The notes under the pieces: model-generated
The model's database searches: none
What the model was told of the DNA's origin: nothing
Seen by the model: only the letters and a program-made list of their open reading frames with translations
Shown here: one piece after another, positions 30,038 to 32,351 of the stretch
Layout: each line of letters starts with the position of its first letter
How positions within the stretch are numbered: position 1 is the stretch's first letter
Made by a program: the position numbers and the translations under genes
Sequence record: PQ505080.1
Strand: one strand, 5' to 3'
Length of the DNA: 64,000 bases
From: Escherichia phage HMD-6

Positions 30038-31087
30038 TTAAGCTTCTTCGACAATTCCTGCACCCAGGATTTTTTCATTGAGCTCTTTTGCTGTTTTAAT
30101 AATATTGTCCACCAGACGCTTACGGGTCTTATCTTTCACCTGAACTTCTTCGCCTCCGTTCAGGGTGGTTTTCAATTGGGACAAAATGTCCTGAAGCTCT
30201 ACCACAGAGAATCGTTGCAGATCTTCCGAGGTAATCTCACCCAGTGCAATCTTAACGGTCTCACCACTCTCCATCTGCAGATTCAGGAACACAGTGCGAA
30301 CATCACCTTTCATACCATTTTCTTTTGCAGACTCAACAGCATGAACCAGCTCGTCCAGAGATGTGCATTGGTGAATCTCTGGCAGGCCTGCTTCACCTAG
30401 CACACCTTCTTCATCACTTTTTGCCAGAAGCTTTTTCGGTTTCTGTCCATTCTGAATGCGCTGAATGTTTTCATCGTCCAGGATAATAGCACCAGTTCGA
30501 GATGCCAGCTCTTCTCCATCTAACCACACTTCGCCGCCAGCTGTGATGGATGCGATCTCATCTTCTGTTAGCACTCCACCGTAGTATTTTTCGATCAGGC
30601 GTTCAAAACGTTTCTTCCAGTAGTTGACCTGGGTATTCATGTTCACACCGTTACCATAGGTGCCACCTTGATAGTAGTGGAACATAAATTCTGTGTCCGG
30701 AGCTACAGTTCGTTCTTTGCAACCCAGCCATAAGATTGTTCCTGCCGAGCAGCACATCCCTTCAGCGTGTACAACAACGCTTGCCTGAGACTCGCGGAAT
30801 GCCTGCAAATACGCCATAGCAATGTGAACGCAACCACCTGGGCTGTTAATGATTACACGGATACTTTCTTCTGGCTGTGCCATACGAATTGTTTGCAAAC
30901 GGGACATATGATCCTGCAAATCTTCAAGATCGTCGATATAAAGAACGTGGTCAACAACAGGTGTTGGGTAGCTGTATGTTTCCATAATACCACCCGGCAT
31001 ACCAAACATTTTATTACTCATAGGTTCGAAACCGTTCTGTTTTTCTTTCATGCCGTGTACCATGGTGCTGCGAGGTGTTAAATTCAT
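30038..31087 (-). CDS. ClpP-like serine protease with C-terminal extension
   Basis: INSPGG...GMCCSAGT...HYYQGG resembles ClpP (S14) catalytic core; about 150-aa acidic C-terminal extension. Confidence 0.65.
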   Translation of the reverse strand: MNLTPRSTMVHGMKEKQNGFEPMSNKMFGMPGGIMETYSYPTPVVDHVLYIDDLEDLQDHMSRLQTIRMAQPEESIRVIINSPGGCVHIAMAYLQAFRESQASVVVHAEGMCCSAGTILWLGCKERTVAPDTEFMFHYYQGGTYGNGVNMNTQVNYWKKRFERLIEKYYGGVLTEDEIASITAGGEVWLDGEELASRTGAIILDDENIQRIQNGQKPKKLLAKSDEEGVLGEAGLPEIHQCTSLDELVHAVESAKENGMKGDVRTVFLNLQMESGETVKIALGEITSEDLQRFSVVELQDILSQLKTTLNGGEEVQVKDKTRKRLVDNIIKTAKELNEKILGAGIVEEA

Positions 31088-31147
31088 GAGAAATCCTTAA
31101 TATTGGAAGTTGAAAGCTATTTATTTAAACCTGATTCACATTTACCT

Positions 31148-31507
31148 TTATTTAGCAATCACTATAGAATACTTACGATTGTCAGAAGCATCACAGCTCA
31201 ATGATTGCCAGTCTACCACATACCACGTATCATTGTCAACAATTACTTTATCGCCTGTTCTGTAGCAGGTGCTGCTTTCAATAATCCGAGACTCGATAAA
31301 GAATCTGTGTCTGCGCTCACGTAGCAACGCTAAGTTGATTATGTTACCACCGCTGTCCTTGGTCCACACATTCTTGGATCCCTTATTTGCCAAAATTGTC
31401 TCGCCGTTATAGACAAACAGGCAGTATATTTTATTCAGTCTCTCTTGTATTGTAGCCATACTGTGCCCTTCTCCTTGTTTTGTCCAATAATAATATCTAA
31501 AGCTCAC
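31148..31507 (-). CDS. hypothetical protein (119 aa)
   Basis: ORF track. Confidence 0.5.
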   Translation of the reverse strand: MSFRYYYWTKQGEGHSMATIQERLNKIYCLFVYNGETILANKGSKNVWTKDSGGNIINLALLRERRHRFFIESRIIESSTCYRTGDKVIVDNDTWYVVDWQSLSCDASDNRKYSIVIAK

Positions 31508-31562
31508 CTGTTTGTCAACAACTGTTTTAGATATTTAAGGGTGGAATAACCACCCTTCTGTA

Positions 31563-32351
31563 TTACTCGGAAACAGGAGTCCAAATATGGTTTGCACGAT
31601 CCTCAATAAGATTGAGTGCAATCTGACGGCCCAACCCAGAACGAACGACATCGTCTGGACTATCAAAGCTAATCATTCCAACCTCAGGATCTGGATGACG
31701 TGTAAAGAAATCTGTCACCCATGCAAGGCCAGATTTACCGGGGATGTCACGTTGGCTGTTATCACCCATAATTACAAGGGTGGCCTGATCAGAGATCCTT
31801 GTAATAATTGACAACATTTCTTCAGGGTTAGTTTGCTGTGCTTCATCAATAAGGACAAAGCATCGTTCATCAAAACTACGACCACGAATGCTTTCAACCT
31901 CACAAATCTCGATACGGCTGTTCTGACCATCTCCCAGCATTGCGGCAAAAGCACCCTTGCCAACACGACGACAAATCGTGTCCATCATACTACGAAGGTA
32001 AGGCCAAAGCTTCTGCATTGACGTTCCTGGTTTGTATCCGCTTGATTTTCCGGTCTGTACATAAGGACGTGCAACAATGATCTTATCAATCTCGTTCTTA
32101 CGCAGAAGATCACCTGCATATGCGGATGCCATGAATGTCTTACCGGATCCAAACACACCGTTTACAATAATAATCTTACGCGATCCTAGATAATCAAGAT
32201 ACTTTTGCTGCTTTTTGTTCATTGGTCTGAGAGCTGGAGCTGTGTGCTCTCGTTCTTCAGCAAATTTCTCAGCAGCCTTGCGCAGGCGATCAGATTTGCG
32301 AGCCTCTCTAGCTTCATCACGCATGCGTTTTGTTTCTTTAGCTCGACCCAT
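31563..32351 (-). CDS. phoH: PhoH-like ATPase
   Basis: Walker A GVFGSGKTF, LIDEAQ Walker B, PhoH-like overall pattern. Confidence 0.8.
   Translation of the reverse strand: MGRAKETKRMRDEAREARKSDRLRKAAEKFAEEREHTAPALRPMNKKQQKYLDYLGSRKIIIVNGVFGSGKTFMASAYAGDLLRKNEIDKIIVARPYVQTGKSSGYKPGTSMQKLWPYLRSMMDTICRRVGKGAFAAMLGDGQNSRIEICEVESIRGRSFDERCFVLIDEAQQTNPEEMLSIITRISDQATLVIMGDNSQRDIPGKSGLAWVTDFFTRHPDPEVGMISFDSPDDVVRSGLGRQIALNLIEDRANHIWTPVSE

Follow-up and report, generated by a model that had tools for sequence, protein, structure and literature searches.

A probable non-capsid ClpP-fold protease encoded downstream of a PhoH-like ATPase gene in Escherichia phage HMD-6

The protease–PhoH locus

Phage genes for ClpP-like proteases are labelled in genome papers either as encoding an 'ATP-dependent Clp protease subunit' or as encoding a prohead protease, and the tests described here support neither label for the gene considered below. 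This gene lies in a stretch of 64,000 nucleotides (nt) of Escherichia phage HMD-6 (sequence record PQ505080.1), referred to throughout as the window, and encodes a ClpP-like serine peptidase of 349 amino acids (aa), accompanied by an open reading frame (ORF) of 103 aa and a gene for a PhoH-like P-loop ATPase of 262 aa, all three on the minus strand (Table 1). Over the 4.5 kb around the locus the window shares 90-96% identity with over 100 Vequintavirus (rV5-like) genomes, and most with that of Escherichia phage DrSchubert (95.7%). The three products are equal to gp122 (349 aa), gp121 (103 aa) and gp120 (262 aa) of the rV5 gene table, where gp122 is labelled 'ClpP protease subunit' and gp120 'PhoH-like' (PMC3606486, Table S3); the genes have therefore been present in public annotation since 2013. 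The protease belongs to a distinct clade of ClpP-fold proteases, which are probably neither capsid proteases nor parts of a ClpXP system.

The ClpP-like gene is located between PhoH/nrdG and a methyltransferase gene, that is, in nucleotide-metabolism surroundings: its neighbours are nrdD/nrdG, the DNA methyltransferase gene and small ORFs, and no morphogenesis genes are found nearby, in agreement with the original prediction, which was made from the sequence alone. The same prediction described a PhoH-like ATPase as the immediate neighbour of the protease. The identity of the ATPase stands, but the two genes do not adjoin, as 476 nt separate the PhoH stop codon from the ClpP-like start codon and the 103-aa ORF lies in this gap. 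Together with the protease gene, this ORF forms a two-gene unit enclosed by a predicted sigma70-type promoter and a predicted intrinsic terminator. The promoter corresponds to P121 of rV5, predicted independently by the authors of that study, and the terminator is identical to rV5 t122 (-14.9 kcal/mol), whereas the late-promoter motif of rV5 is given only before genes 030-064, in the structural region (PMC3606486, Table S4). The PhoH gene is separated from the unit by a hairpin and the near-consensus promoter. The hairpin, which is absent from the rV5 terminator list (PMC3606486, Table S4), may act as a leaky terminator, because its T tract is weak. The PhoH gene itself belongs to an upstream unit, composed of a small ORF, a 116-aa ORF and PhoH, behind a promoter that corresponds to rV5 P118.

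Table 1. Features of the protease–PhoH locus and associated loci (window coordinates unless a locus is named)
Feature	Position	Strand	Remarks
DNA adenine methyltransferase gene	29453-29986	-	counterparts at L010 5774-6586, L016 6269-7081 and L022 4800-5333
Predicted intrinsic terminator GCCCTC-TTCG-GAGGGC-TTTTAT	30002..30023	-	directly past the ClpP-like stop codon
ClpP-like serine peptidase, 349 aa, rV5 gp122 orthologue	30038..31087	-	AAGGA ribosome-binding site 8 nt before ATG
Conserved C-terminal domain, residues 266-343	30059..30292	-	predicted beta-hairpin, short helix, helix-loop-helix
Variable linker, residues 206-265	30293..30472	-	poorly conserved columns; predicted local distance difference test score (pLDDT) 38-66
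ClpP-fold core, residues 46-205	30473..30952	-	long helix 147-169, counterpart of the ClpP handle helix
Glu186 codon GAA, at the ClpP Asp171 position	30530..30532	-	HMMER and MAFFT alignments
Catalytic His137 codon CAC, motif FMFHYYQGG	30677..30679	-	aligns with E. coli ClpP His122
Catalytic Ser114 codon TCG, motif GMCCSAG	30746..30748	-	aligns with E. coli ClpP Ser97
N-terminal region, residues 1-45	30953..31087	-	predicted disordered, pLDDT 33-45
103-aa ORF, rV5 gp121 orthologue	31148..31459	-	AAGGAG ribosome-binding site; opens the two-gene unit with the protease
Sigma70-type promoter TTGACA-17-TATTAT, 11/12 consensus	31490..31518	-	promoter scan; upstream of the 103-aa ORF
GC-rich hairpin GGGTGG-TTATT-CCACCC	31539..31555	-	read from the sequence; just past the PhoH stop codon
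PhoH-like P-loop ATPase, 262 aa, rV5 gp120 orthologue	31563..32351	-	Pfam PhoH, PHROG 170
116-aa ORF	32390-32740	-	in the unit of the promoter at 32880..32909
Consensus sigma70 promoter, 12/12	32880..32909	-	promoter scan
AAA ATPase and ClpP-like genes of metagenomic contig L023	1491-2765 and 4001-4630

A ClpP-fold core and its extensions

The protease matches the Pfam CLP_protease model over residues 59-168 (E 4e-13), PHROG 5410 over its full length (residues 24-345 against profile positions 4-322 of 323; E 7e-155) and PHROG 1827 (E 1e-39). With the NSPGG motif at residues 81-85 and CCSAG at residues 112-116, these matches bear out the ClpP-like core with NSPGG and MCCSAG that had been read from the translation. 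The protein has the ClpP alpha/beta fold, including the handle helix. Alignment of the catalytic triad, the check proposed at the outset, places Ser114 and His137 on the ClpP nucleophile and general base, but the position of Asp171 is held by Glu186 rather than Asp, as is also seen in the alignment to solved ClpP structures. In an alignment of E. coli ClpP and 19 phage homologues, no variation is seen at the Ser, the His or the oxyanion Gly; the third triad position, compared in 17 non-structural members of the family, is Asp or Glu in ten, Gln in six and Ser in one. Purifying selection acts strongly on the core and on the C-terminal domain: in comparison with DrSchubert, 34 synonymous and no non-synonymous codon differences are found in the core, and eight and none, respectively, in the C-terminal domain.

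In the N-terminal region, F28, G29, Y40 and P41 are conserved in Vequintavirinae, and across the family the N-termini are between 3 and 47 residues long. The C-terminal extension (residues 206-349, 144 aa) had been described as about 150 acidic residues; it is in fact only mildly acidic (18% D+E against 13% K+R, isoelectric point (pI) 5.0) and in this respect is hardly to be set apart from the core (pI 4.7). It is composed of a variable linker and a conserved domain, in which F293, E297 and R322 are invariant. A hidden Markov model search with this domain against 1.8 billion representative proteins returned its own family only, and other clade members carry short tails or unrelated extensions in its place; judged from sequence comparisons, it is an orphan domain confined to Vequintavirinae-type members. 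Inspection by eye of the internal Met codons gave no convincing ribosome-binding site for a nested gene of the lambda C/Nu3 type.

The PhoH-like ATPase and the 103-aa protein

The PhoH-like protein is matched by Pfam PhoH (PF02562; E 6e-47, 160 bits against a gathering score of 27) and by PHROG 170 (E 2e-74), and scores 135 bits with the NCBIfam PhoH equivalog model, under its cut-off of 380. Its Walker A (GVFGSGKT, G65-T72) and Walker B (D169-E170) motifs are intact, with G68, K71, D169 and E170 invariant, and its gene shows 29 synonymous codon differences and one non-synonymous difference. The 103-aa ORF has no Pfam or NCBIfam match and is assigned to PHROG 5456 (E 6e-39). Its homologues GAP31_132 (Seunavirus) and phiTE_143 (Certrevirus) likewise lie upstream of a ClpP-like gene, and Vibrio phages have a conserved 60-64-aa ORF of their own in the same relative position. 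Possible roles of the 103-aa protein are those of an adaptor or an inhibitor, or an unrelated one.

Relation to prohead proteases

The original prediction held that the protease may not be a prohead protease, and several indirect lines of evidence support this. The gene does not lie between portal and scaffold or major capsid genes. In DrSchubert, that slot is occupied by a gene for a 139-aa Peptidase_S78_2 (XkdF-type) protein (E 9e-18), followed by an annotated scaffold gene and by decoration and major capsid genes. Separate capsid proteases are also found in phages with homologues of the window protease: Comamonadaceae siphovirus P26059A encodes XkdF (ORF 10) besides ClpP (ORF 116), and Barba18A has a peptidase gene, gp097, between its portal and capsid genes. 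True ClpP-type prohead proteases do occur between portal and capsid genes, as in loci L019 and L021, which turned up in the same searches. Members of the protease clade are also encoded by T5-like phages and by ValKK3, a T4-like phage. T4-like and T5-like phages mature their capsids with well-known proteases of other families. The comparison with virion proteomes, likewise proposed with the original prediction, could be made with published lists: none of the 19 proteins detected by mass spectrometry in rV5 virions has 349 aa, and in virions of Certrevirus CB7 the XkdF-type protease is present, and the list contains no ClpP-like protein. With respect to timing, the transcriptome of Rheinheimera phage Barba, the only one found for a homologue, shows that in rich medium gp072 (CLP_protease) and gp073 (PhoH) already reach 95-100% of their maximum at the first time point and stay there, and both genes fall into cluster 1 (early/replication) and not into the structural cluster. 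Taken together with the sigma70-type promoter and terminator of the two-gene unit, these data point to a window protease that is probably distinct from the prohead protease.

A second, accessory role in capsid assembly has also been considered, in which the helix-loop-helix tail would target the protease to the procapsid, where it would help to clear scaffold or internal proteins. The curated family nearest to the protease is indeed a ClpP-related head-maturation protease (NF045542; 62.8 bits, cut-off 120), PHROGs 1684, 94, 2976 and 133 ('head maturation protease') match with E values of 1e-15 to 2e-23, and a lambda-like contig encodes a 364-aa long-tailed ClpP-fold protease between its portal gene and a gene for Phage_cap_E, a capsid family also found in rV5-like phages. 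However, the non-structural PHROGs score far higher than the head-maturation ones (516 and 137 against 85 bits), and the capsid module is already equipped with an XkdF-type protease and a scaffold. The location of the gene in a nucleotide-metabolism region behind a sigma70-type promoter, the absence from both virion lists, the transcription of the Barbavirus homologue alongside replication genes and the presence of the same clade in T4-like and T5-like phages also speak against an accessory capsid role, which we consider unlikely.

Recurrence of the PhoH–ClpP-like gene order

PhoH is widespread in phages and serves as a marker of diversity among marine phages, and its role in phages has been called enigmatic (PMC7824862). 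The neighbourhood of the protease was compared in 18 hand-sampled lineages with non-structural ClpP-like genes and by one chimeric tblastn search, which together give a survey and not an exhaustive count; a PhoH gene that precedes the ClpP-like gene on its own strand, within about 3.5 kb, was taken as the shared arrangement. It is found in 13 of the 18 lineages, including the Vequintavirus of the window. One ORF lies between the two genes in the window and one small ORF in Vibrio phages 249E41-1 and F96; there are two intervening ORFs in Vibrio phage ICP1 and three in Seunavirus GAP31, and nrdD and nrdG are inserted in Certrevirus phiTE. The genes are adjacent in Barbavirus and in Acinetobacter phage Phab24, are separated by gaps of 3 and 4 nt in the metagenomic contigs L017 and L022, respectively, overlap by 8 nt in Otagovirus phiPsa267, and are coding sequences 146 and 147 of Alteromonas phage V22 and ORFs 117 and 116 of P26059A. 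The chimeric PhoH+ClpP query retrieved 223 phage records with the pair joined in one place. The pairing expected by chance in genomes of 80-150 kb is estimated at a few percent per lineage; the surveyed lineages are not independent, and several of the myoviruses may share one ancestral replication module.

No adjacent PhoH gene is seen in the remaining five lineages, namely Pakpunavirus, T5-like phages, Schizotequatrovirus, a Schitoviridae phage and the metagenomic loci L018/L020. T5-like phages have both genes, about 29 kb apart, and Pakpunavirus gave no PhoH match at all. Two candidates for a hidden PhoH were rejected: the 228-249-aa genes upstream in L018/L020 have no PhoH match at E < 0.01, and the gene upstream of the T5-like protease encodes a deoxynucleoside monophosphate kinase. 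In Pakpunavirus MAG1, the genes directly upstream of the ClpP-like gene, gp172 and gp171, are homologues of gp050 and gp049 of Otagovirus phiPsa267, which are also directly upstream of their ClpP-like gene (L006 3142-3962 and L007 3325-4106). The flanking genes are thus the same, with PhoH present in one genus and absent from the other, and PhoH has therefore been cleanly gained or lost. A different change is seen in Vibrio phages 249E41-1 (L012) and F96 (L015), where the ClpP-like proteins are 60% and the PhoH proteins 29% identical, in the same place and with homologous small upstream ORFs; these identities suggest that PhoH was replaced in place, its position being kept through the exchange.

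On its other side, the protease gene is followed by one for a DNA adenine methyltransferase in Vequintavirinae, Barbavirus and a metagenomic contig of 83 kb, so that PhoH, ClpP-like gene and methyltransferase form a recurring order; more than one Pfam family of methyltransferases is involved (Dam-like and D12). In the papers searched, the PhoH and ClpP-like genes appear as separate 'auxiliary' genes and the pair is not discussed; the recurrent order is a new observation of the present analysis. A separate arrangement was noted in a metagenomic 43-kb contig (L023), in which a gene for a 209-aa ClpP-like protein lies about 1.2 kb downstream of a gene for a 424-aa AAA (PF00004) ATPase, not PhoH, and which may represent a different protease-ATPase pairing.

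The most far-reaching interpretation of the gene order is that the PhoH-like ATPase and the ClpP-like peptidase are the two halves of one physical machine, a new ATP-driven protease or nucleoprotein-remodelling complex. In such a complex, substrates would be fed to the ClpP-fold peptidase, or positioned for it, by a P-loop ATPase of the helicase type and not by an AAA+ unfoldase, with RNA- or DNA-bound proteins as candidate substrates and the small protein and the C-terminal domain as connectors. We regard both the complex and this division of labour as improbable. The same-strand order in 13 of 18 lineages, with an 8-nt overlap or gaps of 3-12 nt at the closest, its persistence in 249E41-1 and F96 where PhoH was apparently replaced, and the co-expression of the two genes in Barbavirus would all be accounted for. 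However, a look through 84 homologues gave no PhoH-ClpP fusion, the pairwise similarities of the two proteins show no positive co-variation across lineages (mirror-tree comparison, Spearman rho -0.31), protein unfolding is not a known activity of PhoH, each of the two genes has its own predicted promoter in the window, and an adjacent PhoH is missing in the five lineages described above. Of the unit that had been proposed for PhoH and the protease, the conserved neighbourhood and the Barbavirus co-expression hold up, but a physical or mechanistic unit does not find support in these comparisons.

Relation to bacterial ClpP

By the available tests, which compare sequences and profiles, the window protease is not a bona fide ClpP. 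It scores 33.5 bits with TIGR00493 (cut-off 308.6) and 20-41 bits with other ClpP equivalog or subfamily models (cut-offs 228-361), and its clade scores nearer to ClpP-related head-maturation proteases than to cellular ClpP. In the pocket that receives the IGF/LGF loops of ClpX and ClpA, the E. coli residues L23, L48, F49, Y60, Y62, F82, I90, M92, F112, L114 and L189 are exchanged for P, Q, T, R, I, E, H, E, T, A and D, respectively, and ClpP helix A and the axial loops lack a counterpart in the protein. The label 'ATP-dependent Clp protease proteolytic subunit' used in GenBank is unsupported, because of the sub-cut-off scores, the altered pocket and the unrelated N-terminus. That label would imply a replacement proteolytic subunit, which docks host ClpX or ClpA, or joins host ClpP rings, and so redirects ATP-dependent proteolysis. 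The ClpP fold with its handle helix and the Ser-His-acid triad speak for such a subunit, but a pocket of mostly polar or charged residues, the absence of helix A and the axial loops, N-termini of 3 to 47 residues across the family, and scores this far below the equivalog cut-offs make it quite unlikely, to our mind somewhat more so than the capsid and PhoH alternatives. Finally, a catalytically dead ClpP-fold protein with a structural or regulatory function, as might be imagined from the Gln or Ser at the third triad position in 7 of 17 family members, is hardly credible given that Ser, His and oxyanion Gly are invariant in all members and that purifying selection is strong near the catalytic residues.

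Proposed role in the infected cell

In the model that we favour, and which we consider fairly likely, the window protease is an active, self-assembling ClpP-fold peptidase that works independently of ClpX and ClpA, in a pathway that also involves PhoH. It would be a non-virion serine peptidase of the phage-specific clade PHROG 5410/1827, encoded outside the capsid module and expressed by the host RNA polymerase early or in the middle of infection. The subunits would assemble into ClpP-like rings via the conserved handle helix, and the assembled peptidase would act in the cytoplasm of the infected cell on host or early phage proteins, and not in the procapsid. Host ClpX and ClpA would not be docked, because the docking pocket and the N-terminal loops are missing. 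The C-terminal helix-loop-helix domain on its flexible linker may serve as a recruitment module for a partner or substrate, either protein or nucleic acid. The upstream PhoH-like ATPase, encoded in the same conserved neighbourhood, probably takes part in the same process, and a functional coupling of the two proteins is plausible. An action on the host has been proposed before for phage ClpP genes, which a comparative study described as patchily distributed (PMC7824862). The literature searched contains no experimental study of any PHROG 5410/1827 member, and searches directed at a characterized ClpP-like protease of phages, at ICP1 ClpP and at Vequintavirus transcriptomes gave no usable result.

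Several points weigh against this model. The best-scoring curated family is that of the ClpP-related head-maturation proteases, and the ClpP-fold prohead proteases of the lambda type likewise have long C-terminal, scaffold-like extensions. The absence from virions is weak evidence, because prohead proteases usually leave the mature virion, and the rV5 list is small, with its 19 proteins. The capsid module, which is not part of the window, was taken from DrSchubert, a relative with 95.7% identity over the locus region, and the comparison of the docking pocket is an alignment at about 20% identity. The timing in Vequintavirus and the peptidase activity are themselves deduced from the DNA and its relatives.

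A non-capsid clade with a fixed place downstream of PhoH in many unrelated phages provides a way to test the function of phage PhoH, and with rV5 and the Vequintavirus isolates of the BASEL collection tractable E. coli phages are at hand for the protease and PhoH question. A PhoH–protease machine, if real, would give phage PhoH a function. Cooperation between the two proteins would amount to a new mode by which phages remodel the infected cell, and even in its absence a widespread annotation is corrected.

Other features of the window and its relatives

Some further observations were made in the window and in related genomes. The nrdD gene is split in the window (33946-36831, minus strand) into ORFs at 35662-36831 and 33946-34938, with a 183-aa homing-endonuclease-like ORF (35059-35610) between the halves and an Rfam group I intron-like match at 34959-35193 (minus strand; 32.9 bits, E 1.6e-5, under the gathering score of 50). 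The nrdD gene of DrSchubert is uninterrupted (1911 nt), and the interruption resembles the insertion of a mobile intron, confined to some isolates. Seven transfer RNA (tRNA) genes are found at 60477-61289 on the plus strand, for Arg, Tyr, Ser, Thr, Met and Pro; one call of 99 nt (60946-61044) has a four-base anticodon (atcc) and could represent a tRNA that is degenerate or contains an intron, or else be spurious. In DrSchubert, bas50_0153 (L001 14209-14526), among the small early genes transcriptionally downstream of the protease locus, is annotated as a 'ribosome hibernation factor'. About 19 'Campylobacter phage' records with C. jejuni as the host (among them MG065644, MG065690, MG065661 and MG065684) are 94% identical to the Vequintavirus region of the window, and are probably mislabelled or derived from contaminated preparations.

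Comparison with known systems

With bacterial ClpP (MEROPS S14; TIGR00493; E. coli 1TYF and P. aeruginosa 7M1L), the window protease shares the NSPGG oxyanion motif, Ser as nucleophile and His as general base at matching positions, the long handle helix and an acidic side chain where ClpP has Asp171. It differs in its low overall identity (16-20%), in the exchange of Asp for Glu, in a score far below the curated cut-off, in the absence of helix A and of the N-terminal axial loops, in docking-pocket residues that are not conserved, and in the possession of an extra 144-residue linker and domain. The ClpP-related head-maturation proteases (NF045542; PHROGs 1684, 94, 2976 and 133; lambda gpC-like) are also phage-encoded, have a Ser-His site and are in some cases long-tailed; in contrast to them, the window protease reaches about half the cut-off score, is encoded outside the portal–capsid slot, where an XkdF-type protease is found, lies behind a sigma70-type promoter and is absent from virion proteomes. 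The PhoH-like protein resembles the PhoH, YbeZ and PhoH2 ATPases (PF02562) in its end-to-end PhoH domain and in its Walker A and B motifs, but has no PIN domain, scores under the equivalog cut-off and carries a basic N-terminal stretch of 40 residues that is common to the ClpP-linked phage PhoH proteins. The closest correspondence is with the phage 'ATP-dependent proteases' of PHROG 5410/1827, including ICP1 ORF211, phiPsa267 gp047, Barba18A gp072, Phab24 id027 and rV5 gp122, which have the same core, the same non-structural position and mostly a PhoH gene upstream, whereas the conserved C-terminal domain is found only in the Vequintavirinae-type members.

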